The notes: generated from the sequence alone by a model not told the origin. DNA of 64,000 nucleotides from a virus (IMGVR_UViG_3300042465_007464:45601-109600), one strand, 5' to 3'. Shown: positions 1 through 62,347, counted from the first letter of the stretch. Program-made: numbers and translations.

Positions 1-604
1 CATCTTGCATTTCTTCTAATTCTTCTTCCTCTTCTTCTTCACGTAGAATTGATTCAATGATTTCGTCGATGTTGAAGTCTTCAGCTAATTCGTCATCCTT
101 AGGCATATCATAACCTTCAGTTGCCATGTCTTCTTCCATGTCTTCTTCTTCATTAAGATCGCCTTCTAATTCACGAATAATCGCTTCAAGATTCAAATCT
201 TCATTGTACTCGTCAGCCATTTCTTCATCTGATACAGGTGCTTCTTCTTCACCTTCCATTCCAGCTTCAGCTCCTGGCTCTTCTTGAGAAAATATGTCGA
301 ATTCATCAAATTCTCCGTCATTGTTAACGTCAATTGATAAATCACCAACATCTTCTCCAGCACCCATGTCGCCTTCCATTCCTGCATCCATACCTGCTTC
401 AGCACCCATGTCCATGTCATCCATAGCTGGTTCTTCTGCTGGCATTTCTTCGTCTTCTACTTCATTTGTTAACTGAGTTGCTAACATTCTTTCAAGACGA
501 GGAGCGAAAGCTTCTTGTAGTGCAATTTTTGCGTTTGCTAATGCTGTTTCTTTAACGGCACGTGCATCGGCGATTGCTTCTTTTAGCAAATCTGATTTTG
601 CCAT
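1..604 (-). CDS. Prohead core scaffolding protein (T4 gp22-like), runs off the left edge
   Basis: Manual translation from ATG at 604: MAKSDLLKEAIADARAVKETALANAKIALQEAFAPRLERML, then a very acidic E/D-rich region. AAGGAG lies 7 nt upstream. Located in the head gene cluster. Confidence 0.75.
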   Translation of the reverse strand, partial: MAKSDLLKEAIADARAVKETALANAKIALQEAFAPRLERMLATQLTNEVEDEEMPAEEPAMDDMDMGAEAGMDAGMEGDMGAGEDVGDLSIDVNNDGEFDEFDIFSQEEPGAEAGMEGEEEAPVSDEEMADEYNEDLNLEAIIRELEGDLNEEEDMEEDMATEGYDMPKDDELAEDFNIDEIIESILREEEEEEELEEMQD

Positions 605-744
605 AAGTTTTCTCCTTAAATTTGTTTTTTGGAAATAAGATTATTTGAAATCTTAATAGAATATTTTTATTTTATAGTGACGCTATAATAAGAGTGGAAA
701 TAGCGTATTCTACAATAAATATAAGCACGTTTAGAAAAACAGTA

Positions 745-776
745 AAAAAGTCCTAACTTTTTTTAGCTAGGACTTA
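745..776 (-). terminator. Intrinsic terminator after bS21
   Basis: Stem AGTCCTAGCT/AGTTAGGACT followed by a U-tract on the minus strand. Confidence 0.7.
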
Positions 777-794
777 AAATCGGTGTAAGTTGTT

Positions 795-1040
795 TTATTT
801 TGAGTGTTGATCTCGAACCATTTGCATGAATGCAGCTTTAATATTTTGCTGTCTGCGTTGCACACTAGGCTTAATGAATTCTCTGCGATCTTTTGTCGCT
901 TCAAGCACTCCGGCAGATTTTACTTTGCGTTTCCATGCTTTAAGTGCATGTGCTAAATCTTCTCGTTCTGTTCCTACAACTTGTACTGCTAATGCATTAC
1001 CCGGAACAATTTGTTGATGTTGTTTTTGTTTTTTATTCAT
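795..1040 (-). CDS. rpsU: Phage-encoded 30S ribosomal protein bS21
   Basis: ALKAWKRKVKSAGVLEATKDRREFIKPSVQRR matches the bS21 pattern (ALKRFKRK...R.F.KPS..RR). Confidence 0.9.
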   Translation of the reverse strand: MNKKQKQHQQIVPGNALAVQVVGTEREDLAHALKAWKRKVKSAGVLEATKDRREFIKPSVQRRQQNIKAAFMQMVRDQHSK

Positions 1041-1058
1041 ATAACTTGTTTAATAGTA

Positions 1059-1562
1059 TCAAATAGCTTCTGGTGCCGGTGCTTCTGGTTGTGGACGTTG
1101 TCCTCTTACATTGAAACGAAAATGTTTAATTTCTGGCACTTGTGCAACGTATCCTTGAATCTTTTGTGATTCGCGTCCTGGATCTTCTCCTAAACGAAAA
1201 TAGAAATATCCTACTTTACCTGATTTAGATATGTTTTGTTTAACTATAGTAAATCCTTTTCGTTCTGACCAATCTCGTATATCATTTGCAACGTTTTGTG
1301 CCATTGACGGATCTCGCAATACATATTCAACTCCTCCGCGATAATCTGCAATATGATTAACAAGTTGTGCTTCGTCTATTTCAGATTCATTAGCTGTTAT
1401 TCTAACATTACCACCGGCTTTCTTTGCAGCCACTTGTGCTGCAGTTAATGCATTTTTATCTTTTGCAACAGATGCCGCTATTTCAATATCGTTTGGATTT
1501 TGTTTAGTAGTTTGTTCTGTTATTCCGAAAAATTCTTTATATAATTTTTTTAGTGCATTCAT
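1059..1562 (-). CDS. Hypothetical virion/head-associated protein
   Basis: ORF; the likely start is ATG 1562 (AAGGT upstream, promoter directly upstream) rather than 1595. Confidence 0.6.
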   Translation of the reverse strand: MNALKKLYKEFFGITEQTTKQNPNDIEIAASVAKDKNALTAAQVAAKKAGGNVRITANESEIDEAQLVNHIADYRGGVEYVLRDPSMAQNVANDIRDWSERKGFTIVKQNISKSGKVGYFYFRLGEDPGRESQKIQGYVAQVPEIKHFRFNVRGQRPQPEAPAPEAI

Positions 1563-1604
1563 TTTATTACCTTTAATATAAATAAAAAGATTCAAACATC
1601 CAAA

Positions 1605-1976
1605 TTAATTAACATCGAAGTATTTGTTTAATCCTTGTGCGATATCTTCATATGCTGCACTTAAACGTTGTTGCAACATAGCCATTTCTTTTGCAGTTGC
1701 TTCAAATACTTTGTATGAATCGTTTAGATTTTTCATGTGACGTTTAACTGTTACACTATCAAACCAATCGCCTTTTTCCGTTGCAATTTGTTCTGCTTTG
1801 TTAATGATGTCACGTACATGATCGGTTAATTGATCTAAATCACCTTTTCCATATACCGAATCACTCATTTCAGAAAAACGTTTAACGCGTTCAACGAATG
1901 CAGCTTTTTCTTCTTTAGACAATGGTTTTGGTTGTTCGTCTAACAACGTTTCTAGTATGTATTTTAAATTTCTCAT
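1605..1976 (-). CDS. Hypothetical helical head-associated protein
   Basis: ORF directly downstream of the prohead protease; likely start MRNLKYILE. Confidence 0.6.
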   Translation of the reverse strand: MRNLKYILETLLDEQPKPLSKEEKAAFVERVKRFSEMSDSVYGKGDLDQLTDHVRDIINKAEQIATEKGDWFDSVTVKRHMKNLNDSYKVFEATAKEMAMLQQRLSAAYEDIAQGLNKYFDVN

Positions 1977-1978
1977 CT

Positions 1979-2611
1979 TTAAATTATTCTGCATTTACCG
2001 TCTTCGCATAAAATTGAAGTAATAAGTTCATTTACACGTGCGTATTTGTTTGTTTTAACTGTTTTATCTACTGACTCGTGCATGTGCGTAGGCCGCATAA
2101 AAGCCCCATGCGTTGAAGGATTTGATACAAAGTCCCAACATATCAATTCAAAGTCTTCTTGAACTTCAACCGTACCCTCACTGCGTAATTCTTTTACGGA
2201 ACCTAATCCACGGGATGAAATGCCTAATGTGATACCAGCTTTAAAAAGTTCTTTAAGAATTTTTCCTGACGGAGTTTCTAGTATTTGTACTGCTCCTTTT
2301 AAATCATCACCATCCCACCATATTTTTAGTACATTATGAGATACGTTGTTCAAGTTTACTACGGAAGATTCTGGATGATCCAATTCTCCTAGTGCACGAT
2401 GCTGTTGTATGAATTCTTGTTCATATCGTCTACATTCGCGTTCTAGTATGTTTCTTGGATAGATTCTACCATTTTGATTTTTTGCTCCCGCACGTTGTAA
2501 AACTCCTTGAACTACAAAACCACCAGGTATCCCATATGCAGCCCCACTCGATTCAGTAAGTGAACCAATCGGACGAAATGGCATATATTCTACTATTAGT
2601 TGTTTTGACAT
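1979..2611 (-). CDS. Prohead core protease (T4 gp21-like)
   Basis: NQNGRIYP, ALGELDHP, GISSRGLGS and DFVSNPST motifs. Confidence 0.93.
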   Translation of the reverse strand: MSKQLIVEYMPFRPIGSLTESSGAAYGIPGGFVVQGVLQRAGAKNQNGRIYPRNILERECRRYEQEFIQQHRALGELDHPESSVVNLNNVSHNVLKIWWDGDDLKGAVQILETPSGKILKELFKAGITLGISSRGLGSVKELRSEGTVEVQEDFELICWDFVSNPSTHGAFMRPTHMHESVDKTVKTNKYARVNELITSILCEDGKCRII

Positions 2612-2612: not shown

Positions 2613-3350
2613 TTATTCTCCTAATGCTCTTACGCGTTCCGATATTTTGACTAATCGTTCTGATATTGTTGATAATGCTTTTTTAGTTCGTGCTCCATAT
2701 GAAGATGCAGCTACACCAGATTCTGTTTTTAATCTTGCGTTATGTTTTACTAGTTCATCAATTTCTTGAAGTTTTTTAGCAATTTCTTGAATGGTGCGAT
2801 TCACTTTTTTATCCGGCGATACGTCTTTATCTGCCGTTGCAAATGACCGATAACCTTCAATCAATTCCTCATATTTACGTTCCATAACATCTTCTACTTT
2901 CAAAGCAGATATTTGTTTGCGAACTCCATGTTGTGGTAAATTTCCTATGCGAGTTGTGTTGTCTTCAATATTGTTCGTACCTTCACCATCCGGATAATAT
3001 TTTACCGGAAACTCTTGATCCGATTGCCACCAATATGATGCATCTGGCGAAAAGGGAAACTTATCATTGAAAATTTCTTCATCTGACTCAGGCGCTTGAT
3101 GTCCCGTTGTTTTCCAATCAAATGTCGGTTTAACATTTATAGATTCGTAACGTGCTTCTTTACCTCGCCATTTTCCTGGTTTAGCAAATGCAGCCGGCGT
3201 ATTGAATCCAGCAATGGCACCCGTTACATTTTGTTCGTCAATTTCTTCTTCATCGCAAACACACTTATCCATAGGACGATCACATGCATCGCAATATGAA
3301 TCTTCTATTTCATGGAATCGTTCTTTCATTTCACGTAATATTGACTTCAT
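2613..3350 (-). CDS. Hypothetical head-associated protein
   Basis: 245-aa ORF coupled to the protease gene. Confidence 0.6.
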   Translation of the reverse strand: MKSILREMKERFHEIEDSYCDACDRPMDKCVCDEEEIDEQNVTGAIAGFNTPAAFAKPGKWRGKEARYESINVKPTFDWKTTGHQAPESDEEIFNDKFPFSPDASYWWQSDQEFPVKYYPDGEGTNNIEDNTTRIGNLPQHGVRKQISALKVEDVMERKYEELIEGYRSFATADKDVSPDKKVNRTIQEIAKKLQEIDELVKHNARLKTESGVAASSYGARTKKALSTISERLVKISERVRALGE

Positions 3351-4240: not shown

Positions 4241-6082
4241 TTACAAAATATTGTTTTCATCTAAAATAGTACCAGCGTCTTTATCAGATTCCGTTGGTAT
4301 TGCTGTTTTTAAAGATTCTGTTATTATGGATGCACCTTTATTTTTTATTTTTAAATGTTTCAATATGTTGTTATGTTCTACGGCAACTGTTGCGTTGTTT
4401 TTAAACTTCGGATCTGGCTGAAATGCTGTTTTTTGATTTTCTGGATTAAATGTTTGCTTAATAGTTTTAATACCCGTTGGATCCCATCCAAATTCATTTT
4501 GATGTTGTCCTGATTTAATTCCTTCTGGTGGACGGCCTCCTAAATCTTTTTCTTCAACGTCATCGCTGGACATGTGCATTGATGCTAAATCATGAGGTGT
4601 TCCAAATGAAACTCCCGTTATAGCAGGATCATTTCCTTCTTGTTCAATCTGATTTTGACGGAAACGAAGTTTAAGATCTTCAATAACATCAACACGTTCT
4701 TGAAGCCATTGTTCTTCGGACATATTGAATATAAACTCATAAATGTAACGATCTGAAACAAGTTTTAAATCTTTCATTGTATTTGCTAATTGAACTTTTT
4801 CATTCATTAAAGCAACTTTTTGTTGATCGTATATAATTGATGGTGCTGTTAATTCTAGTTCAAATCCAATTAAATCTTCGCCTTCAAATCCTTGTGAATA
4901 TAAATGCACTATTCCAATTTTAATAAGTTCCGATGTTACGATTTTTTGAATACGTTCGATAGTTCTGGCAAAACGAATATCCATGGATGCTAACGTAGTT
5001 TTACCTTCAACTGACTCGCTATATCCTAAAAATGGTTTAGGAATTTTAAGTGCAGCCATCATTTTATCTTTTACATATTCAATATCATCCATTCCGGTAA
5101 ATGTCATACCTGGTAATGTATCAATTGTAGTAGAAGACTGACCCCCGCGTACTGGCAAATAATAATCTTCTAACATGTTGTTAAGATTGAATCTCATGTT
5201 GTAATTTCCAGTTTGCGGATCGATGTGTGGAATTTTTTTCATTTTATTGATAATCTGTTCCATGAAATTATCAACTTCATTTGGTGGAATATTACCAATA
5301 TCAATTTTAAAGATTCGTTTTTCTGGTGCACGCATTATACGATGAATAAGCATTGCATCTTCTAACATCATTAATTTTTGAAATTCTTTACGTGCTCCTT
5401 CTAACATAGATCTACCGTACGGTAAAAAGTTTGAATCCGACAACATACGGAAATGTGCTATTTCAAACACATCATATGTCATTTGTTCTGACGCAATATT
5501 TTTAAATTTAATATCATATTCACCCGTCGCTTCATTATATTCTTCCCAACGTTCCATTTCATAACTAGAAAATGGACGTGCATTAACTACTCCGTAAGTG
5601 TCTGCGATATCTAATTTCAAAAAGAAATCACCGTATTTGGTCATGTTGCGTATCCACGTCCACAAATTGAATTCAATGTTCAATACATCATAAAACAAGT
5701 TATAAAGTATTTTTTGAATTTGCGTGTTATTAGTTTTGATTGTAAGTATATCTCCGAATTGATCTGCTAATGTAGATTCATCTGAATAAATATCTAAGGC
5801 AGAAGATATGATTGGATCTTTATCCATCATTTCGTAGTCAGCATATAACTGCATACGATTTTGGTGCATATAATAATTAGAATCATATCCACCCATACCA
5901 CCGACACGGTGTTTGTTTGCACCATGCAGTCGAGTATATCGATCTGCAATTTTACTTTGTGCTAAATTACCAGAACCTTGTAGACGATTTGTATCTACTA
6001 CACGTACCTGATCTTTCCCATATGCCCGAACAATTACGTTGGTGCTAAATAGGTTCTGTAAACGTTTTCTTAATGACGCCAT
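4241..6082 (-). CDS. Portal protein (T4 gp20-like)
   Basis: EDAMLIHRIMRAPEKRIFKIDIGN, LEDYYLPVRGG and IDTLPG motifs. Confidence 0.93.
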   Translation of the reverse strand: MASLRKRLQNLFSTNVIVRAYGKDQVRVVDTNRLQGSGNLAQSKIADRYTRLHGANKHRVGGMGGYDSNYYMHQNRMQLYADYEMMDKDPIISSALDIYSDESTLADQFGDILTIKTNNTQIQKILYNLFYDVLNIEFNLWTWIRNMTKYGDFFLKLDIADTYGVVNARPFSSYEMERWEEYNEATGEYDIKFKNIASEQMTYDVFEIAHFRMLSDSNFLPYGRSMLEGARKEFQKLMMLEDAMLIHRIMRAPEKRIFKIDIGNIPPNEVDNFMEQIINKMKKIPHIDPQTGNYNMRFNLNNMLEDYYLPVRGGQSSTTIDTLPGMTFTGMDDIEYVKDKMMAALKIPKPFLGYSESVEGKTTLASMDIRFARTIERIQKIVTSELIKIGIVHLYSQGFEGEDLIGFELELTAPSIIYDQQKVALMNEKVQLANTMKDLKLVSDRYIYEFIFNMSEEQWLQERVDVIEDLKLRFRQNQIEQEGNDPAITGVSFGTPHDLASMHMSSDDVEEKDLGGRPPEGIKSGQHQNEFGWDPTGIKTIKQTFNPENQKTAFQPDPKFKNNATVAVEHNNILKHLKIKNKGASIITESLKTAIPTESDKDAGTILDENNIL

Positions 6083-6124
6083 ATTTCTTTTTTAATATAA
6101 ATATAACTATGTTAAGATCAGTGG

Positions 6125-7705
6125 TTATTTTATCAACCAAGTTAATGATTCATCGCCTGACCCAGGATTCCAATTCCATCCATTGTCGCTGTTATTACGA
6201 TTGCCAGTATAAATAACTGGACTCGTTTTTTGAAAAGAAGATAGTGCACGTTTATTCAAATCAATACCTTGTTGACGTAATTTTAGTGCAGTATCGCGTA
6301 ACCATAATCCGATACAAAATGACATTACTAAGTCATCGTTATATCCTTGTTGTGCTTGTGCTTTACCATTAAGCCAAACAAACACTAGTAATTCTTGTAT
6401 TAAACGTCGGCTACGAATAAACGGAGTACGATCTCGCATATACATTTCAAGTGCCGATATCATTAATGGACGTGTACGTGTTGTGGTTGATACTCCCGGA
6501 ACCATTTGGCTCTTATCTTTCATATCATAACCTTTTTTCAATTGTACATCGGCATCTGTATATCCGTCATCTTTATATGTATAATGTAAGTTTTGATAGT
6601 TTCTATCAAGTGCCGGCTGAATTGCGGCCCAACCAATGTTTGCATTTTCAATAGCTAATAACGCATTGTTCCATTCCGTTGCAACCGTTACTAACATGTT
6701 TCCAAATTCATTGGGTGGAATCTTTCCTTTAAATTCTGCTACTTGTCGTACCGTTTCAACTTCTAAAACATGAAATGCAGACCAGTCACCACCATCACCC
6801 CGTGCGACGTCAGCTACTACCATGTAATCACGTGCATAGTCCGGATATTCCCAAATCCAATACGCTCCATCAAATCCACGCTTTTCAATTGGTTCTTCAC
6901 ATTTACCTTCATATTCTAAAAGCAAAGGACCATCTACTACAGTATGTCCCGATGATACGAAGTCACAGTCACATTCTTGTGCCGCACCGCGTTCGCCTAA
7001 TAACGATGTTTGTTCATTACGCCACGTTTGGTCGCGTTCTGGGTGCACATCCCAACGCAAACGAATTGTATGGAAACCGTTAATGTCCGCTTCCGCGTCT
7101 GCCCAAGTTTGGTGAAACCAGTTACCAACACCGTTCGGCGTAGATAATACAATAGCACCACCACCCGTTGATAGGGTTGCTTGCGACGCTATCCATATTT
7201 CTTCAATGTTTCGAATAAATGCAGCCTCATCAATGATTAGCAGAGACAACGCTTCTGAACGTGCTCCTGTGGTTGCTGATGAAACGGCTTTGATTTGCGA
7301 ACCATTTTTAAATTTAAGTGATAATTTGTTATCAGCTTCAACCGTACCTTTCAACCAACTTGGCAAGTTATCGTGCATCACCCGTACTTTCGTTACTAGG
7401 TTTTTTGCTACTTCTTGTGTGGTTGCAATAACTAACACGTTGAAATCTTCTTTGAACAACATGCACCAAAGTGCAAAGCCGGCAGATAGAGTTGATATAC
7501 CTAACTGCCGAGACTTTAATATTACATTGTATCGATTATCGCGAAGCTGTGTTAATGAATCTTCTTGGAATGGAAACAAATTAAATTTGATCTTACCACG
7601 TTTAGGATGTTGTATGTAACAATAATTACGCATAAAAAATACAGGATCTTTAGCACATTGCATGTACTGTTGTTGTATTATCTGCTTAATATTTTGTTGT
7701 GCCAT
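6125..7705 (-). CDS. Terminase large subunit (T4 gp17-like)
   Basis: KSRQLGIST Walker A, IIDEAAF Walker B, STPNG, and nuclease motifs DVARGDG and NDDLVM. Confidence 0.95.
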   Translation of the reverse strand: MAQQNIKQIIQQQYMQCAKDPVFFMRNYCYIQHPKRGKIKFNLFPFQEDSLTQLRDNRYNVILKSRQLGISTLSAGFALWCMLFKEDFNVLVIATTQEVAKNLVTKVRVMHDNLPSWLKGTVEADNKLSLKFKNGSQIKAVSSATTGARSEALSLLIIDEAAFIRNIEEIWIASQATLSTGGGAIVLSTPNGVGNWFHQTWADAEADINGFHTIRLRWDVHPERDQTWRNEQTSLLGERGAAQECDCDFVSSGHTVVDGPLLLEYEGKCEEPIEKRGFDGAYWIWEYPDYARDYMVVADVARGDGGDWSAFHVLEVETVRQVAEFKGKIPPNEFGNMLVTVATEWNNALLAIENANIGWAAIQPALDRNYQNLHYTYKDDGYTDADVQLKKGYDMKDKSQMVPGVSTTTRTRPLMISALEMYMRDRTPFIRSRRLIQELLVFVWLNGKAQAQQGYNDDLVMSFCIGLWLRDTALKLRQQGIDLNKRALSSFQKTSPVIYTGNRNNSDNGWNWNPGSGDESLTWLIK

Positions 7706-8084: not shown

Positions 8085-8441
8085 TTATTTTTTAGTTTTA
8101 GTATTTTTGTTATTTGGTTTACGACCTTTTTTAGTTTTGTTCAAAATATTTGCTTTCGCATCTACAACATCACGAACTTCAACTACTAAATTGTCTTTTG
8201 CTTCTTTAAGATCTTGTACTGCAGTTACTGCATCCGTAATTTGATCGTTAATTGCTTCTCGTTTTTGTTCCATAACTTCAACAGCTTCTTCAATTTTATC
8301 AATTGTGTCGTTGTTGTTTTTGATTTTATCGTTTAATTCTGATTGTTTTTTACTTTTGTTAGAATTAACTAGGTATAAAACTCCAGCAATTGCCGCAAAT
8401 ATACCTACTACTGCTGCTACGATTTTCTTAATTATTTTCAT
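8085..8441 (-). CDS. N-terminal TM coiled-coil protein (i-spanin-like candidate)
   Basis: N-terminal hydrophobic helix followed by a coiled coil. Confidence 0.45.
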   Translation of the reverse strand: MKIIKKIVAAVVGIFAAIAGVLYLVNSNKSKKQSELNDKIKNNNDTIDKIEEAVEVMEQKREAINDQITDAVTAVQDLKEAKDNLVVEVRDVVDAKANILNKTKKGRKPNNKNTKTKK

Positions 8442-9075
8442 CTGTTTCCTTGTCTAAATTGTTTAAAAAATCTTGTTTAAATTTATCAAATTGTTTTTGT
8501 ATTGTTTCATCAAATTCTTCAGCAGTCATTCGAGCCGTCCATGCTTCTTGTTGACCTTCTGAATTAGTTACGAAATTTGATGCTTCGGTATATACTTGTT
8601 TTAACATTGCTACATCGCGTTCTGCAGCTGCTAACCAAGCAAGTTTATTTTCACGAATCTTAGATTGTTCGTATTCTTCAAATTTACCTTCTTTTTTCAA
8701 TTCATGTTCCATTTCAATTGTGCAATCAAAACACATTCCATGAATCTTACGCATTTTTTGGTCCAACTGATGCGTTCCAATGCAAGTGCATGTTTCTTTG
8801 CGACAATTTGGAAATGCGCGAATTTCTTCTCGTATAGATTGAAGTGCGTCGCTGGCTTTGGTTTTCTTAACTCGAAATCCATCACGTTGTTCATAAATGT
8901 AAGTGATGCCGGTACTAGAATCCGTCTCTTCCCATGTGTCACCTACTTCATGCCGTTCGTTGCGTTTTGCAACTTGTTCTGCATCAGAGAACCCAACTGT
9001 TTTTTTAGTTTGGAACTTGTGTGTGCCATCCAACATTTGTTGAATCGCTTTGGTGTTTTGTAACTTTTTTGACAT
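8428..9075 (-). CDS. Hypothetical protein with Cys cluster
   Basis: 215 aa; PNC..TCTC...HGMCFDC. Confidence 0.6.
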   Translation of the reverse strand: MSKKLQNTKAIQQMLDGTHKFQTKKTVGFSDAEQVAKRNERHEVGDTWEETDSSTGITYIYEQRDGFRVKKTKASDALQSIREEIRAFPNCRKETCTCIGTHQLDQKMRKIHGMCFDCTIEMEHELKKEGKFEEYEQSKIRENKLAWLAAAERDVAMLKQVYTEASNFVTNSEGQQEAWTARMTAEEFDETIQKQFDKFKQDFLNNLDKETDENN

Positions 9076-25033: not shown

Positions 25034-25035
25034 AG

Positions 25036-52901: not shown

Positions 52902-52917
52902 TGTTATTGTTTCTATA

Positions 52918-53292: not shown

Positions 53293-53371
53293 GTTTTCTC
53301 CGATTTTAATATAAATATAAGATGAATGAAAAGAAAAAATTTTTTAGTACGTTAGTACGGCTTAGTATATA

Positions 53372-53480
53372 GTGCGCCCTTCCAGGAGCGCACAGGTTAT
53401 CCCTTCCAGGAGCGCACGGGTTATCTTCCAGCATCGCACCGATTCGTTTCCAGCATCGCACAGGCTCGTTTCCAGGCGTA
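53372..53480. repeat. GC-rich degenerate tandem repeat (5 TTCCAG cores, 22-24 nt period)
   Basis: cccttccaggagcgcacRggttat x2, ttccagcatcgcac x2, ttccagg. Confidence 0.8.
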
Positions 53481-53999
53481 TTACTCGATACCCGTTGCGT
53501 CTGCATCTTGTTTGCGTACTATCCATAATTTGCCACCAATCTCACGTGTTACATATCCCAATGAAATTAGTTTTGTCGCATTAGCCGCCAACAAGGCTTT
53601 ATATATGCGAGTCTTTTGCTGGTCTTTTTCTGCAGATGCAGTGTCAGCTCCAGTTACATCTACAGCTTCAGGTTGATGTTGTGCCAGAAAATCGCTTATA
53701 GCTTCTGCCGCAGTACTCATGAGACGTAGATAATTAACATGTCCCACTGCTGCTGAACGTGCGTGATTAACTGTCCAATTCAAATCTGCAGCGTGACGCG
53801 TATCTGGCGTTTGTGTTAAAATACCAAAACCCCATTCTCTGCGTTGTAAAAGTGTGAACACAAACAAGATGCGTTGACCATTCACTTCAATTTCAGTTTC
53901 ATAGCCATTCATATCGTTATCTTGCCATGTGAATTGGGTCGCGTAGGGCGTTACGCTCCCCAAAGTGATTTCTGTTAAAAGTTGTTTTAATCGTATCAT
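53481..53999 (-). CDS. Hypothetical protein with MIRLKQLLTE leader
   Basis: 172-aa ORF. Confidence 0.65.
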   Translation of the reverse strand: MIRLKQLLTEITLGSVTPYATQFTWQDNDMNGYETEIEVNGQRILFVFTLLQRREWGFGILTQTPDTRHAADLNWTVNHARSAAVGHVNYLRLMSTAAEAISDFLAQHQPEAVDVTGADTASAEKDQQKTRIYKALLAANATKLISLGYVTREIGGKLWIVRKQDADATGIE

Positions 54000-54484
54000 A
54001 GCATACCTGTTGGTGCTGGTGCGTAACGTGAAGCCGCAGGATTAAGATGTTTTATTGAATTCCATAAGCTATCCCAAGACAAACCTGCTTCTGCAGATAT
54101 GTCTACAAGCAAATCTGTTTTATATGTATGTTTATACGTTGCAATAACATTGCTTAATTCTTGCAAAGTTTTAATGCTTTTTAAAACATTGAGTACTTGT
54201 GAGTTTCCGCCTATACCCGTAACCAATTGATTTAATTGTTGTGCTTTGCGTCGCGAAGTTGTATCTCCCGTAGTCTTGATGCGTTTAGCTTGTTGATAAG
54301 TTTGTGTGAAACGTTGTTGTGGAGTAGTTTGTTTTGGCATAGTCGCCCCAAAATCTGTTGGTGCATCCGCTTCTACCCCGGGAGTTTTACCCGCAGGTGT
54401 ACCCGAAGCCTTGCTTAGATTGAATGCATTGTTACTACTCAATGCAAATCCTAGTTGTTCTATTAACGTCTTAAGGCGTATCAT
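53996..54484 (-). CDS. Protein with MIRLKTLIE leader and annexin-repeat-like C-terminus
   Basis: GIG...VLNVL....L..V.ATYKHTYKTDLLVDISAE. Confidence 0.55.
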   Translation of the reverse strand: MIRLKTLIEQLGFALSSNNAFNLSKASGTPAGKTPGVEADAPTDFGATMPKQTTPQQRFTQTYQQAKRIKTTGDTTSRRKAQQLNQLVTGIGGNSQVLNVLKSIKTLQELSNVIATYKHTYKTDLLVDISAEAGLSWDSLWNSIKHLNPAASRYAPAPTGML

Positions 54485-54524
54485 GGAATCCTTTTTTATA
54501 ATAAATATGCCATGCCAGTATAGT

Positions 54525-55369: not shown

Positions 55370-55392
55370 ATCTCTCTTTTTATATTAGGTTA

Positions 55393-55524
55393 TTACTTAC
55401 TCTTAATAATTGCATCTAATTGTTGTTTCAATTGGTCGATGTCTTTCTTAGTTAATTTAGTGATTTTCAGGTTAGCTGCTGCTGCTTTGAAATCGAAAAA
55501 AGCTTTTGGATCAATTTGTTTCAT
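55393..55524 (-). CDS. Early small protein (43 aa)
   Basis: Manual translation MKQIDPKAFFDFKAAAANLKITKL...; AAGAGAGAAC-ATG. Confidence 0.6.
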   Translation of the reverse strand: MKQIDPKAFFDFKAAAANLKITKLTKKDIDQLKQQLDAIIKSK

Positions 55525-55644
55525 GTTCTCTCTTTTTTTAAATTAATGCTTAGGGCCTTTCCCTAATTGCTATACATAAAGATAAGAATAATCGCAATAC
55601 AAACCTAATCTTTTTGCAACTTTTTTTAACTTTTTTTACAGTAG

Positions 55645-55670
55645 AAAACCGACACCATCGCTGATGCCGG
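55645..55670 (-). terminator. GNRA-loop terminator after the AAA gene
   Basis: CCGGCAUCA-GCGA-UGGUGUCGG-UUUU. Confidence 0.75.
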
Positions 55671-55695
55671 ATCCTTATTTGAGAGATATGTTCGC

Positions 55696-56646
55696 TTATT
55701 CTGCGGCGATGATTTGTTCTGCTACCATCTCCTCTACATTGTCAAAGCCCATTGCACATATTCTTGCCGCTTTGATGAAGCTTCTAAGGTTGATGTCAAC
55801 TCCTCCAAACTTAGCATCCAAGCTTTTCATTACATCCAATGCTTGACGCTTAGCCGCTACCGGTATGGTTGGCTCCATAGACTCAAGCAATTGCTCCATG
55901 CGTTGGAACATTTGCGTGGTGTTCATTGTTATGTCTGCTACAAAGCTACGGCTTCGGATTGCTGCATCCAATTTGCTTTGGCTGATGTTGCTGACAAAGA
56001 TTATTTTGCCGGTAAACTCAAAGTGTGCTGGGATCGGTTCACCAAACTCATCTTTAAGGGGCTTGGTAGAGATATAAGATATCTTGCGAGTGTCATAGCT
56101 ATCCAAAGCCGCTTTGAGGATGTTAACCGCATCGTCGTCTTTGAATACAGAGTCACAGTCATCCAACACTACTATCTTGTCGGAGTTTTGGTACAAGGTA
56201 ATAAACAAGCCGGCTGCGGTAGCTTTGCCTTTGAAGTGCTCAAACTCGTAAGACTCTCGCAATCCCATCGCCTTAAGTGTCTCCTTAACCAAGTGCGTCT
56301 TACCTACACCTGCCATACCCGTGATAACCAAAGAGGGTTGGATCCCACGTCCTACCATCTTAGTAAGGCGCTCCAAGTTACCAAACATTACTTGTGGATC
56401 TCTGCTATCCAATACGGAAAGGAAAGACATTTTGCTTGGAGCTGCCGGTGCCATTGTTACACCTGCTTGGTCCGCTGCTACTCGCGTTACTCGGCCGTTG
56501 CCATTAACCATTAGCACTTCGCGGTTCTTCTCTGCGTTCAATAGCTGAACGTGACGGATTAGATCCTTTGTTGCAAACTCTCCGGTTTTGATGTTCTTCG
56601 CCATCAATTTTCCTTTTACTCTTACTGGTTCAAATACATTTAACAT
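55696..56646 (-). CDS. AAA+ family ATPase
   Basis: GMAGVGKT Walker A; VVLDDCD Walker B; NILKAALD; AIRSRS. Confidence 0.85.
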   Translation of the reverse strand: MLNVFEPVRVKGKLMAKNIKTGEFATKDLIRHVQLLNAEKNREVLMVNGNGRVTRVAADQAGVTMAPAAPSKMSFLSVLDSRDPQVMFGNLERLTKMVGRGIQPSLVITGMAGVGKTHLVKETLKAMGLRESYEFEHFKGKATAAGLFITLYQNSDKIVVLDDCDSVFKDDDAVNILKAALDSYDTRKISYISTKPLKDEFGEPIPAHFEFTGKIIFVSNISQSKLDAAIRSRSFVADITMNTTQMFQRMEQLLESMEPTIPVAAKRQALDVMKSLDAKFGGVDINLRSFIKAARICAMGFDNVEEMVAEQIIAAE

Positions 56647-56719
56647 ATCTCTTATTTTTTAATTATAATATAAATTTAATGAAATTATCCGTGCGTGTCA
56701 AGCCCTTTGGCAACTTTTT

Positions 56720-56848
56720 TTAAACTTTTTTCATGTCGTGGAAAACTAGGATTCCTGCTGGGATCAACCCTAATAGACCTAAGTCATTACCAAATGCTAC
56801 TAGTACCAATCCGATCCCTAATGCTAATGCTGTCAATGTTGTTCTCAT
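56720..56848 (-). CDS. Early small membrane peptide (42 aa)
   Basis: Manual translation MRTTLTALALGIGLVLVAFGNDLGLLGLIPAGILVFHDMKKV; own promoter. Confidence 0.6.
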   Translation of the reverse strand: MRTTLTALALGIGLVLVAFGNDLGLLGLIPAGILVFHDMKKV

Positions 56849-56930
56849 ATATCTCTCTTTTTAATTTATATAAAGATAAGGATATTATCCGTGCGTGTCA
56901 AGCTTTTTTGAAACTTTGTTTAAACTTTTT

Positions 56931-57095
56931 TTATCCGAAGAATCCACCCGCAGTCAGGATCCAAATTAAGATTGCAGTGTCAATTAAACCCATAAACAAG
57001 TTATGTCGTCCCTCGCGAGGCTTACCGTGCAAGAAGGATACTAACAACAATTGGATCCCTAATAAGGTTAATAAGATAATTTGTGGTGTTCCCAT
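56931..57095 (-). CDS. Early small membrane protein
   Basis: Start MGTPQIILL at AAAGAGAT-ATG; two hydrophobic helices. Confidence 0.6.
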   Translation of the reverse strand: MGTPQIILLTLLGIQLLLVSFLHGKPREGRHNLFMGLIDTAILIWILTAGGFFG

Positions 57096-57174
57096 ATCTC
57101 TTTGTTTTAGATTGTTTCTCACGTCCGCATGGGCCAACATTTCTGCTGGCCCGGGACTATGTTGAGAGATATGT

Positions 57175-57549
57175 TTACTCTGTTAATGTTGCCTCATATT
57201 GTTCATCGCTGTCATCAACAATTTCAAAGCATCTGTCTAAGGCATTTTGGATGGCATCAAAGATGTTGTCACTCTCGACGTCGACATTTACCAACCTTAC
57301 TGTGTTGTGATAATCCATTTCAAACTCAGCTGATGACAAAGCAACAACGTCATCATTGTCCATGTTATTGATTGCGGATTCAATCACATCACCGATTGCA
57401 TCAAACATTGATTGCGTCATGCGCAACTCTGTCTTTGTCACTACCTCAGGATCCAAGCCTTGGATAAGTGCAATCACATTGTCAATTGATACTACTGAAG
57501 TCAACGCCTTTGCTGCTTCTAACTGTGCTACTAATTCTTCTTTTCTCAT
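57175..57549 (-). CDS. Early acidic hypothetical protein
   Basis: 124 aa; own promoter. Confidence 0.65.
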   Translation of the reverse strand: MRKEELVAQLEAAKALTSVVSIDNVIALIQGLDPEVVTKTELRMTQSMFDAIGDVIESAINNMDNDDVVALSSAEFEMDYHNTVRLVNVDVESDNIFDAIQNALDRCFEIVDDSDEQYEATLTE

Positions 57550-57633
57550 CTCTCTTATTTTTTAATTATAATATAAATTTAATGAATTAATCGGTGCGTG
57601 TCAACCGTTTTGACAACTTTTTTTAAACTTTTT

Positions 57634-57840
57634 TTACAGGCCGGAAAACTCCCCATCAACAAACAATAATGCTTCTCCGGAGCCTAATCCATCCACGCAT
57701 ACATTAAAGTATCCGTCATTGGCATCCATAATGTTGTCCTGGTCTAGGATCTCGGTAGCTACTCGTTTGCTGTCCATCAACTTCATGAAGTCTGATGCGT
57801 TGAGGCTACTTGCTGCTTTGATAATTTGATTTCGTGTCAT
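57634..57840 (-). CDS. Early hypothetical protein
   Basis: 68 aa; own promoter. Confidence 0.6.
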   Translation of the reverse strand: MTRNQIIKAASSLNASDFMKLMDSKRVATEILDQDNIMDANDGYFNVCVDGLGSGEALLFVDGEFSGL

Positions 57841-57924
57841 ATCTCTTATTTTTTAATTATAATATAAATTTAATGAATTAAATGATGCGTGTCAAGCTTT
57901 TTTGAAACTTTTTTGAAACTTTTT

Positions 57925-58011
57925 TTAATTAAACAATTCAACATAAATTATTGCGTCAATCGCCAAAGTTGCTTGGCATACAATCATCTGGATTTTTTTT
58001 ATCTCTTTCAT
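57925..58011 (-). CDS. Early micro-peptide (28 aa)
   Basis: MKEIKKIQMIVCQATLAIDAIIYVELFN; own promoter and AAGAGAT-ATG. Confidence 0.45.
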   Translation of the reverse strand: MKEIKKIQMIVCQATLAIDAIIYVELFN

Positions 58012-58089
58012 ATCTCTTAATTTTATAATATAAAGATAAGCAAAATAACCATGCGTGTCAACCGTTTCGGCAACTTTGTTTGAAAAAAG

Positions 58090-58830
58090 TTACAGGTACT
58101 GAGCCAATAACTCAATACCCGGTAAACTTGCCAATGCCGTCTCTGCCTGTCGAACTAATTGTCTTGCACGTTCATTCGTCACATTCATCTCCTCAGCAAT
58201 TTGATCCATGCATTGTGCATACTCTCGTCCGATCCCGTAGAATCTCTCCAATGCTTCGCGTTGCTTTGGTTTAAGCATACTCATAGCACGTTGCAAATCG
58301 AATTGCATATCTTGCACGTCACGGCGTGATACGGTGCTATCCGCAGCCAAGTAACGATCCGCATAGGTTTCTTTGTTCTCGTCGTCACCTACCGGAGTGG
58401 ATATGCTTTTGGTGCTATACTCCTCAGTAGCCGTACGGTGGCTTGGGATCCTTACTGTGCGGGACATATCATTCAATGCCTTTTGCAACTCGGCACGGAT
58501 ATACCATACCGCAAAGGTAATGAACTTAACGCCTTTGGTTGGATCGTAACGTTCAGCGGCTTCAAACAAACCTACATTACCAAACCCAATGAGATCCTCC
58601 AATTCCAAACCCATTCCCTGATACTGTCGTGCTACTTGGATAACGAATCGCAAATTGCTTTCCACCAACTCATTGATTGCACGTCGGTCTCCTTGCTGTG
58701 CGCGTTCTCCTAATACGATCTCTTGTTCTCGAGTCAATGTGCCTGCCTTGCGCACTTCTTGCATGTATCTTACTGTAGACTCTGCTGTGGCTACTACTGC
58801 GCCGGTTGTGATGAATTTTCTTTTTGACAT
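58090..58830 (-). CDS. RNA polymerase sigma70-family factor (RpoD/RpoS-like)
   Basis: NLRFVIQVARQY, EDLIGFGNVGLFEAAERYDP..G.KFITFAVWYIR, region 4 ERARQL. Confidence 0.92.
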   Translation of the reverse strand: MSKRKFITTGAVVATAESTVRYMQEVRKAGTLTREQEIVLGERAQQGDRRAINELVESNLRFVIQVARQYQGMGLELEDLIGFGNVGLFEAAERYDPTKGVKFITFAVWYIRAELQKALNDMSRTVRIPSHRTATEEYSTKSISTPVGDDENKETYADRYLAADSTVSRRDVQDMQFDLQRAMSMLKPKQREALERFYGIGREYAQCMDQIAEEMNVTNERARQLVRQAETALASLPGIELLAQYL

Positions 58831-58872
58831 ATAACTCTTTTTTAATTAATAAAACGTAACCAATGCAACCGA

Positions 58873-59070
58873 CTACTTGCCGGTTGCTAAGAATTTAAAA
58901 CTTACTCTTACTGGAGCGGTTTGCTTTGCGACATACTCTGCCTTTCTTTTACCCAACTCAATTGCTTGTGCTACGGTTGTGGTATTACCTCCGGTTCTTG
59001 CGTCTTTAGACATTTGTGCCATTACCGCTCCTTGTCTTTCAAATCCTGAATTTCTTTTTCCTTTTGCCAT
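58873..59070 (-). CDS. Early small basic protein
   Basis: 65 aa; own promoter. Confidence 0.6.
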   Translation of the reverse strand: MAKGKRNSGFERQGAVMAQMSKDARTGGNTTTVAQAIELGKRKAEYVAKQTAPVRVSFKFLATGK

Positions 59071-59169
59071 ATCTCTTATCTTTTTAATTATAATATAAAT
59101 TTAATGAATTAAACCATGCGTGTCAAGCATTTTTGAAACTTTTTTACAACGGATCCAATACTATTGGGT

Positions 59170-59391
59170 TCACATTTCTAATGAGTCAATCACTTGGTTC
59201 CATGCATCGGTTTGCTTTGCTTCTCCCTCTGCATTTAGAATGAATCGAAAATTAAAATCTGCATTAGGATTGATTACATAATGTTTGCCATTGTCAGCTT
59301 GAATTAAAAGCATTTCATGATTATACATTTCAGTAACGGTACCAAATAGAACTTCGTTAACATTTAATAAATTTGTGAATTTTACTCTCAT
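59170..59391 (-). CDS. Early hypothetical protein
   Basis: 73 aa; own promoter. Confidence 0.6.
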   Translation of the reverse strand: MRVKFTNLLNVNEVLFGTVTEMYNHEMLLIQADNGKHYVINPNADFNFRFILNAEGEAKQTDAWNQVIDSLEM

Positions 59392-59474
59392 ATCTCTCTT
59401 TTTAAATTAATACTTAAATATAATAAAAAAAGGGATGCGTGTCAAGCATCCCGGTAACTTTTTTCAAACTTTTT

Positions 59475-59732
59475 TTAATAATGCGGATTAACAAAGTCGA
59501 TCCCAATAGCTTTGTAATACACAGCCAATCCTTCAACCAACCTTTCTTCCAAGCCATGCTCAAGATGTTTTTCAATTTCAGCCACCATTACCTCATTGTC
59601 ATCGCAAACCTCTTCTGCAACATGGATCCCTTCGAATTCCAATTCACCATTCTCACCACCCGAGTAGTTCACTTCCAATTCAACCATCATTCCATTCAAT
59701 TGAACTGTCAATCCATAAATTACACCTTCCAT
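59475..59732 (-). CDS. Early acidic hypothetical protein
   Basis: 85 aa. Confidence 0.6.
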   Translation of the reverse strand: MEGVIYGLTVQLNGMMVELEVNYSGGENGELEFEGIHVAEEVCDDNEVMVAEIEKHLEHGLEERLVEGLAVYYKAIGIDFVNPHY

Positions 59733-59753
59733 ATATTTGTTTTTAATTTGTTA

Positions 59754-59948
59754 CTACATTTCGCCTTCAACAACGTCAGTTACTGTAAAATAAGCTACCC
59801 GTTCTATAAAATCAACAACGTCTTCCGGCTCAAAGCCTTCAACATTAATAAGATCCTCAGCAATTGCCTTAATTGCTTGTTCCAATTTTTCCTGTGCCAT
59901 AGTGGGAGTTAAACCCAACATTCTGTCAAATGCTTCCATTGATACCAT
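59754..59948 (-). CDS. Early acidic hypothetical protein
   Basis: 64 aa; own promoter. Confidence 0.6.
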   Translation of the reverse strand: MVSMEAFDRMLGLTPTMAQEKLEQAIKAIAEDLINVEGFEPEDVVDFIERVAYFTVTDVVEGEM

Positions 59949-60032
59949 AATCTCTCTTTTTAAATTAATACTTAAAGATAATAAAAATAACCGTGCGTGT
60001 CAAGCATTTTGCTAAAAAAGTTTACGGAAAGT

Positions 60033-60305
60033 TTATTCCTCTTCGTCCCATTCATCACATTCGTCGCCATATTCAAAATCCAACTCGTCGATTATGTCTT
60101 CAAATGTGGCACACAATGCTTCGGCTTCTGCGTCTGTGATAGTGGATCCCGCCTGTTCCATGTTCTCGCCATCCAGCCAACGTTCAAATACTTCGGTTAA
60201 GTCGGATTCCGCTAAGCGTGCATCCATAATCTCTAACGCGTCGTCGTTAGCTACATCGGTGAAGTCGTAAATTCTTCCGTAAAGGTCTTGCAATTTTTCT
60301 CTCAT
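60033..60305 (-). CDS. Early highly acidic protein (possible DNA mimic)
   Basis: 90 aa, very D/E-rich; own promoter. Confidence 0.55.
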   Translation of the reverse strand: MREKLQDLYGRIYDFTDVANDDALEIMDARLAESDLTEVFERWLDGENMEQAGSTITDAEAEALCATFEDIIDELDFEYGDECDEWDEEE

Positions 60306-60391
60306 ATCTCTCTTTTTAAATTATACTTAAAAATAATAAAAATAACCGTGCGTGTCAAGCATTTTGACAACTTTTTTCGAACTTTTTTTAA

Positions 60392-60547
60392 TTAAAATTC
60401 AACAAAGTCTATTGCCATTTCTCCGATACCCTTTCCGTCACGGGTAATCTCATAATTGGGATCCATACCGGAAATCATGATGTGGGCGATAAGGTCTCCT
60501 ATCGTCGGAAACTCTGCTGTGTAATAATCACAATTTAAACTATACAT
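60392..60547 (-). CDS. Early small protein (51 aa)
   Basis: Manual translation MYSLNCDYYTAEFPTIGDLIAHIMISGMDPNYEITRDGKGIGEMAIDFVEF. Confidence 0.65.
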   Translation of the reverse strand: MYSLNCDYYTAEFPTIGDLIAHIMISGMDPNYEITRDGKGIGEMAIDFVEF

Positions 60548-60606
60548 ATCTCTCTTTTTAAATTAATACTTAAAGATAAGGTTTATAAAGTTAGGATCCT
60601 AATTTT

Positions 60607-61005
60607 TTAGGAGAAAAGTTTCGAAAATGTTTCTGCTCGTTTTAAGCATTCAAATTTGCCGGAATCATTCTTTCCCCATATTTCAGCTTTGCCGGAATGA
60701 CTACATTTGGGAATTACTGTGAATAAAACTTCGTTCTCGTTACATATGCGGAAATCGTCATACAACGGTCCTTGACCCGGACAATTATTCTTAAAGAACA
60801 CATATGTCTCTAGGATGTCAATCTCCGGATTTGCTGCAATAAACTTTTTTACCTTAGGGAATAACACATTTGCTTTACGCTCCAATGATGAATCTTTGCA
60901 AAACCAATCATAAAAGTTAAAACAATCATTTTGATCTCCTTCGCTGTCAATTATTCTTCCTGACGCAAATGCATTCAACTGTTCTGCTAAACTTACTTTT
61001 TTCAT
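60607..61005 (-). CDS. Early hypothetical protein
   Basis: 132 aa; FYDWFCKD, YVFFKNNCP..GPLYDDFRIC. Confidence 0.65.
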   Translation of the reverse strand: MKKVSLAEQLNAFASGRIIDSEGDQNDCFNFYDWFCKDSSLERKANVLFPKVKKFIAANPEIDILETYVFFKNNCPGQGPLYDDFRICNENEVLFTVIPKCSHSGKAEIWGKNDSGKFECLKRAETFSKLFS

Positions 61006-61085
61006 AACTCTCTCAATTTATAACATGTTGTGGGAATATTCCCTTCTTATTAATACTTAAAGATAAGGATAATAAAGTTAGGATC

Positions 61086-61280
61086 CTAATTTATTTGCAA
61101 CTTTTTTTGCAATCTTTTCAACTTTGTTTTAAGCTTATTACGCTCCAACTTGCGAAAGTAATTGCCGTGGTTATACGGAGTGCATCCGTCGGGTTGAGCA
61201 AATGCACTAACCCATTTTGTGGTATCCGTCTTTAGGAATTCCAATCTTGCTTCAATAGCTTTAATTTGTTCTTGTATCAT
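61086..61280 (-). CDS. Early hypothetical protein
   Basis: 64 aa; own promoter. Confidence 0.55.
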   Translation of the reverse strand: MIQEQIKAIEARLEFLKTDTTKWVSAFAQPDGCTPYNHGNYFRKLERNKLKTKLKRLQKKLQIN

Positions 61281-61526
61281 ATCTCCCTTTTAATTTTAAT
61301 AAAGATAAGTATAATAATGATAGGATCCTAATTTTTTGGCAACTTTGTTTGAACTTTTTTCAACTTGAAAAAACAGCCCGTCATATAAAGATAAGTATAA
61401 TAATGATAGGATCCTAATCTTTTCGAAACTTTTTTCAAACAAAGTTAAGGGAATTATAACCGACTATTTCTATTATGGCAGACTCGCCTCGGTTTATTTT
61501 TTTAACTTCCCTTTAACTTTGTTTTG

Positions 61527-61628
61527 AAGTCGGGACAGGATTTGAACCTGCATGGTGGAGACTATTATTCGATCTTATACACTCCACCTTATCTTCCTTC
61601 GACAGCGTTACCATTCCGCCTCCCGACT
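61527..61628 (-). ncRNA. tRNA-like RNA (Leu-type acceptor/D/T arms, non-canonical anticodon region, long extra arm)
   Basis: AGTCGGG/CCCGACT acceptor; GGCGGAATGGTAACGC D-arm; GCAGG-TTCAAAT-CCTGT T-arm; GGTGGAG/CTCCACC extra stem; no CCA. Confidence 0.7.
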
Positions 61629-61640
61629 CGAGGTTGCTGG

Positions 61641-62021
61641 CTAATTAAAGCCAACAAACCCTTTTTCCAATTTTATATCTAAATCCTCCACCATTTCCTT
61701 TAAACGGTAATAAGGAGCGGCTTCCAATTCATCTTCGAATATGTCACATATTCTTTCAATTGTGTAACCAAATCCATATCCGCAAATAGTAACGGCTTTC
61801 TGAATGGCAATCATTTCGTCGGATGCACATTCCCAATCCAATTCAGACAATTCGCCATCTTCTTCATCCAACTCAGCTTCTGCGGCATCCAATGCATCCA
61901 TCCACAGACTATAAATTGCATTCTTTACTATCTCAGCCACTGCATCATTGTGGTCATACATTTCGCGGCTCCAAGGTTTAACAATTTGGGTCCCGTACTC
62001 TACTTTTGGTTCTTTTTTCAT
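61641..62021 (-). CDS. Early acidic hypothetical protein
   Basis: 126 aa; own promoter. Confidence 0.65.
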   Translation of the reverse strand: MKKEPKVEYGTQIVKPWSREMYDHNDAVAEIVKNAIYSLWMDALDAAEAELDEEDGELSELDWECASDEMIAIQKAVTICGYGFGYTIERICDIFEDELEAAPYYRLKEMVEDLDIKLEKGFVGFN

Positions 62022-62092
62022 ATCTCTTATTTTTTTATATACTTAAAGATAAGTAAAAAAGAGATGCGTGTCAAGCATCTCCCTAACTTTTT

Positions 62093-62347
62093 TTAAACTT
62101 TTTTTGCATCCGTAACAAGCTTGTTACGGAGCTTGTCTACTAACTTTTTAAAATTAGTAACTGCATCCCAATTCCCGGTGTCTATGGGAGCTGTTAACCC
62201 GAAATACCCGTCGGGAGCGTAATGCATATTAAGCAACTGCATACGCGGACTTGCTTTGCGCAATGCTACTTGTTGTGCTGCTACACGTGCAGCTACTTGC
62301 TTAAGCTCTACATCTGTAAGCAATGTGACATTAAAACTTTCTTGCAT
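62093..62347 (-). CDS. Early hypothetical protein
   Basis: 84 aa; own promoter. Confidence 0.6.
   Translation of the reverse strand: MQESFNVTLLTDVELKQVAARVAAQQVALRKASPRMQLLNMHYAPDGYFGLTAPIDTGNWDAVTNFKKLVDKLRNKLVTDAKKV

Follow-up and report, generated by a model that had tools for sequence, protein, structure and literature searches.

A 64,000-nucleotide window of viral DNA (IMGVR_UViG_3300042465_007464:45601-109600), comprising bases 45601-109600 of a 109.6-kb IMG/VR phage record with a CheckV completeness of about 65%, encodes its own copy of the ribosomal protein bS21 and carries short Shine-Dalgarno (SD)-like motifs before most of the genes that directly follow putative late promoters, whereas genes behind host-type early promoters have none. 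Among relatives of this phage, one clade combines bS21 with SD-like leaders and its sister clade has neither. Our tentative preference, held with less than even confidence, is that the expression classes of the phage use distinct start signals for translation, and that its late SD sites would work through a change in the host ribosome late in infection, for which the phage bS21 is the likeliest agent. The temporal classes (early and late) are assigned throughout from promoter motifs only.

SD-like motifs at late gene starts

Genes were called mechanically, as the longest open reading frames selected by codon log-odds, and the starts were therefore not picked by their leaders. Defining an SD-like motif as any of the 4-mers AAGG, AGGA, GGAG or GAGG within -15 to -4 of the start, we found one at 41 of 118 starts (35%), compared with 187 of 2612 non-start ATGs on the coding strand (7.2%; p = 4e-18). 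A stricter pattern, AAGG[AT] or AGGAG, was present at 32/118 starts (27%) and at 2.6% of non-start ATGs (p = 1e-23). The start positions of AAGG cluster at -14 to -9 in 34 of 119 genes, with about 0.5 per position elsewhere; the motif as a whole reads (T/A)AAAGGA(A/T), its 3' end lying 3-8 nucleotides (nt) from the start and its first G at -8 to -12. It thus combines the fixed position and the enrichment at true starts that characterize a Shine-Dalgarno element. The consensus (A)AAGGA(G) is complementary to UCCUUU/CUCCUU of a Bacteroidia-type 16S rRNA tail (residue identities from PMC7797042), and could pair with it if the host has a tail of this type.

The sequence-only reading of this DNA had named 22 late or structural starts with SD-like motifs, and all 22 carry one; 21 are starts of the mechanical gene set with the motif in -15 to -4. 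At its start 1562, the ATG, with the leader TTATTTATATTAAAGGTAATAAA-ATG, is a better choice than the mechanically called TTG at 1595. The exceptions that it gave were also found as described: the early motif is present at 43663 and 45001, no SD precedes 27890 or 32003, and 61280, an early gene said to have one, reads AAAAGGGAGAT. Its broader claims, that AAGG is enriched in late leaders over background and that leader types split by promoter class, agree with the strong enrichment seen here and with a real division among the classes. SD-like motifs occur at 16 of 24 genes proximal to late promoters, at none of the 11 early cassettes, at 2/14 genes behind promoters of the TTGG/TTCATTA type, and at 25 of the 75 genes with no promoter motif within 60 nt (Fisher's exact test, late vs early, p = 2e-4; late vs TTGG-type, p = 2.5e-3).

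The late promoter motif reads ATATTTATA. Its element ATATTTAT(A) occurs 41 times on the coding strand vs 6 times on the other, and 24 copies lie within 70 nt upstream of starts. Being a short A/T motif that is strand-specific, has no -35 element and lies upstream of late genes, ATATTTAT appears to be a promoter of the T4 late type. From ATATTTAT to the SD-like motif the distance varies between 4 and 17 nt, while the distance from the motif to the ATG is held at 3-8 nt, and many of the sites are internal to operons with no promoter nearby (23736, 25033, 34151, 2611). We considered AAGGA as a part of the late promoter and rejected it, because the promoter distance varies and the ATG distance does not.

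The late genes that bear the motif are those whose products are likely to be abundant, namely scaffold, major capsid protein (MCP), protease, neck, sheath, tube and hub, and it is missing from portal, large terminase (TerL), bS21, genes 13681 and 18391, and the very large proteins. This distribution is conserved. Three TerL scans of IMG/VR yielded 237 related loci, and when leaders were scored in orthologues with matching N-termini, the motif was kept in MCP (25/25), scaffold (24/25), neck (13/13) and protease (37/45), and was rare or absent in portal (1/73), TerL (8/64), gene 9075 (0/63), bS21 (0/32) and gene 18391 (0/21). Conservation is therefore gene by gene, with the flanks diverging. The split between classes is repeated in a close relative, G001 (112 kb, TerL 89%), and in the distant genome G005 (L276-L282, 133.7 kb), where 75 of 155 genes overall have the motif, including 12 of 16 behind late promoters and 0 of 12 behind host-type promoters.

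Co-distribution of bS21 and SD-like leaders

The bS21 gene encodes 81 amino acids and is the last gene of the late head operon. Its leader, UAUUAAACAAGUUAU-AUG, has no SD, and nearly all relatives share the SD-less context AAGUUAU-AUG. The best solved relative of the protein is the bS21 of Flavobacterium johnsoniae (7JIL_z), in which Tyr54 aligns with Phe71 of the phage protein, the latter having a 17-residue N-terminal extension; KAAYIQ of F. johnsoniae aligns with KAAFMQ, a conservative change from Tyr to Phe. With its PF01165 fold, an aromatic residue at the Tyr54 position and a weakly basic C-terminus, the phage protein is of the Bacteroidia type, and it carries the Bacteroidia/phylum signature region described in PMC7797042. 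A tblastn search of phage records with bS21 gave no match, and a search of a protein atlas returned viral bS21 clusters only.

To compare bS21 with leaders across relatives, we used loci covering the protease-to-MCP interval, for which a control window gave SD-like motifs at 5-6%. The loci fall into three sets. Those like the studied phage (set A) encode bS21 in 26 of 26 cases and have SD-like leaders at 38% of genes; for the L083-like loci (set C), to which G005 belongs, the figures are 9/9 and 55%; for the loci resembling Flavobacterium phage immuto (set B), they are 0/29 and 4% (18 of 501 genes). Complete immuto itself has the motif at 8 of 215 genes, so that the expectation of the sequence-only reading that bS21-less relatives would show no AAGG enrichment is borne out. 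On the TerL tree, the bS21-positive and the immuto-like loci form two well-supported sister clades; the association of bS21 with SD-like leaders is therefore perfect, yet it amounts to one evolutionary contrast. Mel-JY01, deposited as a Microcystis phage, is the closest relative in culture that encodes bS21, and 32% of its leaders are SD-like.

The bS21 proteins of set A, including the studied one, have Tyr or Phe where F. johnsoniae has Tyr54, and their C-terminus is short and weakly basic. Those of set C, Mel-JY01 and the outgroup LR756508 have Arg, Lys, Val or Met at this position and a basic C-terminus with long C-terminal tails, and in this respect resemble the pocket-compromising mutants of F. 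johnsoniae in which the anti-Shine-Dalgarno (anti-SD) sequence is freed (PMC13000457). The N-terminal extension M(S/N)KKQKQHQxIVPGN is conserved in set A (residues 1-20; window 980-1040, minus strand), with K3, K6, H8, P13 and G14 invariant, and KKQKQHQxIVPG had no bacterial match among species-representative genomes.

Two side observations concern these relatives. In SD logos of sets A and C, the consensus is AGGAG-A; only about 4% of sites continue with the G that would pair with C1535, and the full GGAGG is thus avoided. The promoters of Mel-JY01 (PP395634.1, e.g. 63040-63110 and 98278-98350) fit the Bacteroidota pattern TTG-N19-TAnnTTTG with upstream AAAAAAGTT, like those of immuto, and its host assignment or transcription merits a second look.

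Early and leaderless-type starts

The early genes lie at 55.3-62.3 kb. Their promoters, of the form TTG-N20-TAHHTTTA, place TA(H)(H)TTTA 20 nt after TTG and the hexamer about 24-26 nt before the ATG; they fit the Bacteroidota -33/-7 type, and their architecture is identical to that of immuto. In F. johnsoniae, the -7 element is TAHHTTTG and lies 4-5 nt from the transcription start (PMC6847099), and with this spacing the early leaders are predicted to be about 18-20 nt long. The leaders are of the type AAGAGAGAU and end in AAAAAGAGAGAU-AUG or AAUAAGAGAU-AUG. RAGAGAK was found within 11 nt of 12/118 starts, vs 6 of 2612 non-start ATGs, and all 12 are at window positions of at least 43663. The motif adjoins the ATG though its distance from the promoter ranges over 23-55 nt (31-55 nt at 45001, 43663, 61005 and 55524), and it also stands at 55369, a start inside an operon; it is therefore an element of the start site and not of the promoter. 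The idea that it is merely a duplicated promoter cassette was rejected on the same observations. The early signature is kept in orthologues of G001, whose early leaders read AAGAGAGA.

The second promoter type has the form TTGGAN-N17-TATAAT-like, often after TTCAT, and lies 18-32 nt from the ATG in some genes. The -10-like hexamer is only 5-7 nt from the ATG at primase (22500) and three genes to the left of the window; the predicted transcription start then falls on the ATG, and these messages are, from the geometry alone, probably leaderless. The primase promoter geometry is identical in G001.

Several further features of start regions were noted in passing. In G005, (A)CACUAC(U) replaces AAGAGAG in early leaders (e.g. 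78227, 78570, 85657, 88082, 88894), and subclades seem to differ in their early signature. The AGAGAG of the early leaders of the studied phage (55372-62028) can pair with CUUUCU, the last six bases of the Bacteroidia-type 16S tail, with one G-U; the duplex energy is similar to that of AAGGA, but the motif is only 0-3 nt from the ATG. Pairing energy was dropped as a classifier of leaders, early AGAGAG scoring as well as AAGGA. The sequence GAGAGATATG occurs six times (0.11 expected), with four copies as early start context and two antisense on the mRNA strand; the latter, at 55681-55690 and 57164-57173 (plus strand), lie directly past the stop codons of the early genes 55696..56646 and 57175..57549, and could pair with early start regions. 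A last context, RGTT(AT)-ATG, is enriched 5-9x at starts in the studied phage, in G001 and in bS21-less immuto; relatives keep it before bS21 and before gene 8428..9075.

Genome context and host

Nearly all genes are on the minus strand, and transcription runs from about 63.7 kb down to position 1 and beyond it into the left portion of the record; the only plus-strand genes are those starting at 42630 and 43790. Matches to PHROGs in the window include large terminase, portal, prohead protease, primase, an SbcC-like nuclease and endonucleases. Scaffold (start 604) was named through orthology to immuto, which also places MCP, neck protein, sheath, tube and baseplate hub just left of the window. 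No match was obtained with megablast of 16 kb against a phage collection, or with PHROGs and Pfam for the bS21 neighbours 1059..1595 and 1605..1994. The 109.6-kb record has no type IX secretion system (T9SS) sorting domain, no bS18 or bS6 homologue and no tRNA. The positions of the sites are given in Table 1.

Table 1. Positions of start signals, promoters and related features in the window.
Feature	Position	Strand	Remarks
SD-like AAGGAG	612..617	-	7 nt before scaffold start 604
Intrinsic terminator	748..775	-	past bS21; then late-type motif TTATATTTATTG ~110 nt before scaffold ATG
bS21 gene	795..1040	-	Pfam PF01165, 45.9 bits
SD-like AAAGGT	1569..1574	-	before ATG 1562, behind late-type motif TATTTATA
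SD-like AGGAG	2618..2622	-	before prohead protease start 2611
Portal (start 6082) and large terminase (start 7705)	4241..7705	-	late genes without SD-like motif
SD-like AAGGA	8447-8451	-	start 8441
SD-like AGGA	9871-9874	-	start 9862
TTGGAA-N17-TATATT promoter	22501..22535	-	ends 6 nt before primase ATG 22500
SD-like sites	23741..25044	-	AAAAGGA (start 23736), AAAAAGGA (GTG start 24468), AAAGGA (start 25033)
SD-like AAGGT	28567..28571	-	start 28560, behind ATATTTAT
Seven SD-like sites	34158..39332	-	named starts 34151 AAAGGA, 36042 AGAGG, 36503 AAAGG, 37874 AAGGA, 38891 AAAAGGA, 39318 AAAGGA
TTGGAG-N17-TATATT promoter	41110..41160	-	18 nt before ATG 41109; A/T-rich leader, no SD
SD-like sites	42619..43786	+	AAGGA (start 42630), AAAGGA (start 43790), both behind ATATTTAT
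AAGAGAG-ATG signature	43664..45008	-	starts 43663, 45001, behind TTGG-type promoters
Nine SD-like sites	45669..54496	-	named starts 45665, 46106, 46266, 48510, 49544, 50645, 53292 (GTG), 54484; four sites directly behind ATATTTAT
Early signature AAGAGAG/AAGAGAU	55372..62028	-	0-3 nt before 55369, 55524, 56646, 57549, 59391, 59948, 60305, 60547, 61005, 62021
Host-type early promoters	56647..62420	-	AAAAAAAGTT repeats (phased), then TTGACACGC, N, then TA(H)(H)TTTA
RGTT(AT)-ATG contexts	1041-1050, 9076-9085, 23173-23180, 37875-37881, 58831-58840

The virus is a large T4-like phage, probably with a Flavobacteria-type host, that is to say from bacteria in which ribosomes do not ordinarily respond to SD sites. 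A host within the Bacteroidota is suggested by the early promoters, by the type of bS21 and by kinship to a Flavobacterium phage. The T9SS-domain search and tRNA scans of the record gave no clue to the host. Cellulophaga phages have been reported to be without SD features (bioRxiv 10.1101/2021.04.21.440840).

Proposed mechanism and alternatives

In F. johnsoniae, ribosomes replete with bS21 are SD-blind (PMC7797042, PMC9976891, PMC13000453, PMC13000457), and in ribosomes without a functional bS21 pocket the anti-SD is freed, SD-led mRNA being translated better and SD-less mRNA worse (PMC9976891; PMC13000457). If the host of this phage behaves likewise, a late change involving bS21 would raise the expression of SD-led virion genes and depress that of host and early messages; the leaders of this phage are divided in just this way. 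In the scheme that we propose, early genes would be transcribed from Bacteroidota-like promoters with purine- or A-rich leaders of some 18-20 nt that end in AAGAGAG/U-AUG and lack an SD, and such leaders would suit ribosomes with a sequestered anti-SD. Among the genes behind TTGG-N17-TATAAT, some would start at or beside the ATG and would probably be leaderless. Late genes would be expressed behind ATATTTATA or within late operons, and those with abundant products would rely on a short SD, (A)AAGGA(G), at canonical distance. The late head operon would supply the phage bS21 from an SD-less message; at a late stage of infection, the host ribosome would be altered, most likely by this protein, leaving its 3' tail free to pair, and ribosomes so altered would prefer virion messages with an SD to host and early messages without one. 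In its fullest form, which we hold to be possible but doubtful, the phage bS21 would make SD-blind Bacteroidota ribosomes SD-reading late, opening a private channel for virion genes, starving host and early messages, and creating a start code of three tiers: early genes with a host-like purine leader, some replication genes with leaderless starts, and late genes with an SD.

The sequence-only reading had likewise proposed that the phage shifts ribosome specificity during infection. Of that claim, the enrichment of AAGG and its lack in bS21-less relatives stood up, and the switch itself is unproven, given the single contrast, LR756508 and the Phe at the Tyr54 position; we consider a ribosome switch plausible. 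A number of observations weigh against such a switch. The link between bS21 and SD-like leaders is one independent phylogenetic contrast only, and the outgroup LR756508 (484 kb) has bS21 and no SD-like leaders. In Mel-JY01, SD-like leaders are also found behind host-type promoters, and the temporal split is thus not universal. The phage bS21 has Phe-Met at the position of Tyr54-Ile55 and a Bacteroidia-like C-terminus, features that are thought to hold the anti-SD (Chen et al. 2022 read the aromatic residue at the Tyr54 position as anti-SD-blocking), and the phage SDs are short (5-7 bp), whereas a 13-bp helix is needed to expel bS21 in F. johnsoniae. About five late genes have the motif only 4-6 nt past the promoter motif, where it may lie at or before the 5' end of the mRNA, and pairing energy to the typed Bacteroidia tail does not by itself separate early from late leaders. 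Two scans of bacterial genomes, one with a bS21 alignment and the other with a Gfo/Idh/MocA-like protein, gave no clue to the host, the former being keyed only on the phage-specific N-terminal pattern. The case for the switch is built on sequence comparison.

Several of these observations would be accommodated if the SD sites worked without the phage bS21, the loosely bound host bS21 being lost or no longer made and bS21-free ribosomes accumulating as infection proceeds. The phage protein might then keep replete ribosomes for SD-less late genes (portal, terminase and bS21 itself) or counter a host defence. The many late genes without an SD, the host-like residues of the phage protein where the anti-SD is held, and the presence of bS21 without SD sites in LR756508 would all agree with this, as would the ability of bS21-less F. 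johnsoniae ribosomes to use SD sites and their poorer performance on SD-less mRNA. We judge it unlikely, if well short of negligible, since the bS21-less Flavobacterium sister clade, which has late promoters of the same kind, should profit equally and yet has no such sites. It is very improbable that AAGGA does not pair with the ribosome at all, and is instead a part of the late promoter or initially transcribed region, or a site for a phage RNA-binding protein or nuclease. T4 offers examples of the latter in RegA, which binds start regions, and RegB, which cuts at GGAG, and in several genes the motif does follow ATATTTAT by 4-6 nt; however, its distance is variable from the promoter and held from the ATG, many sites are inside operons away from any promoter, and the 16S tail is complementary to the consensus AAAGGAG.

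The bacteria infected by the bS21 clade might also not be SD-blind, being relatives of the Bacteroidota or other moderate users of SDs, in which case the motif would simply mark strong expression, as it does in ordinary phages, and its link to bS21 would be a coincidence of phylogeny. That SD presence tracks the likely copy number of the product, that Mel-JY01 has SD-like leaders in all classes, that the genome scans returned no host and that a single contrast links bS21 to SDs are all in keeping with this possibility. Nevertheless, we regard it as rather improbable. Lytic phages of SD-using hosts normally bear an SD on most genes, whereas early genes are without one in three genomes (0/11 here, 0/12 in G005). 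In addition, the early promoters conform to the Bacteroidota -33/-7 type and to the promoters of the Flavobacterium phage, and the set A bS21 has the Bacteroidia signature (PMC7797042).

Comparison with known systems

Among ribosomal proteins, bS21 is the one that phages encode most often, and in F. johnsoniae it decides whether SDs are read. A clade in which a phage-encoded bS21 goes together with SD sites confined to late genes, next to a sister clade with neither, gives the phage protein a testable job, without constituting proof. If true, this would be a new viral way to time gene expression and to shut off host protein synthesis. On the practical side, gene callers that were tuned to Bacteroidota phages without SDs will place starts of the bS21 clade wrongly.

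The freshwater Bacteroidetes phages studied by Chen et al. 2022 (ISME Commun 2:31, PMC9723584) are likewise T4-like myophages with bS21 among the genes for TerL, portal, protease and MCP, and likewise have an aromatic residue at the Tyr54 position, their bS21 being most like that of Flavobacteriia. The studied phage shares the placement of bS21 within this conserved block and differs in its orientation: in their phages bS21 is on the strand opposite the structural genes, and here it is on the same strand (795..1040, minus), where it ends the late operon. Chen et al. proposed a late entry of phage bS21 into host ribosomes, to the benefit of phage messages, and concluded that it blocks the anti-SD as the host protein does; leaders, untranslated regions and ribosome-binding sites were not analysed. 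The class-specific SD pattern and the sister clade that lacks both bS21 and SDs do not appear in that study. McNutt et al. 2023 speculated on the exchange of bS21 by phages, and our literature search found no paper reporting SD-led late genes in bS21 phages or Flavobacterium phages.

In the autoregulation of rpsU in F. johnsoniae (PMC7797042, PMC9976891, PMC13000453, PMC13000457), the status of bS21 likewise toggles ribosomes between SD-blind and SD-reading states, and SD-led and SD-less messages respond oppositely. That system concerns a single host gene, rpsU, with an SD of 9-13 bp read by bS21-free ribosomes, whereas dozens of late genes with SDs of 5-7 bp are involved here. The phage bS21 gene, having no SD, would itself stand outside feedback of the rpsU type.

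The closest cultured relative with a Bacteroidota host, Flavobacterium phage vB_FspM_immuto (NC_055915; 160 kb, complete), has a TerL that is 56% identical and a syntenic head and tail module, and shares the late motif ATATTTATA, the early promoter architecture, the RGTT-ATG context and leader lengths. It differs in that a six-frame Pfam search found no bS21 and its genes show no SD-like peak, the leaders of sheath, tube, neck and MCP being plain and A-rich without AAGGA. At its orthologue of the 28560 gene, the promoter is present and the SD is not.

Phage T4 carries SDs on all classes of genes and acts through proteins that bind or cut mRNA, namely the RegA repressor and the RegB nuclease, which cuts GGAG in early start regions. 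As in the phage studied here, start regions in T4 differ by temporal class, as a means of turning off early protein synthesis and favouring late; here, the classes differ in the presence of the SD itself.

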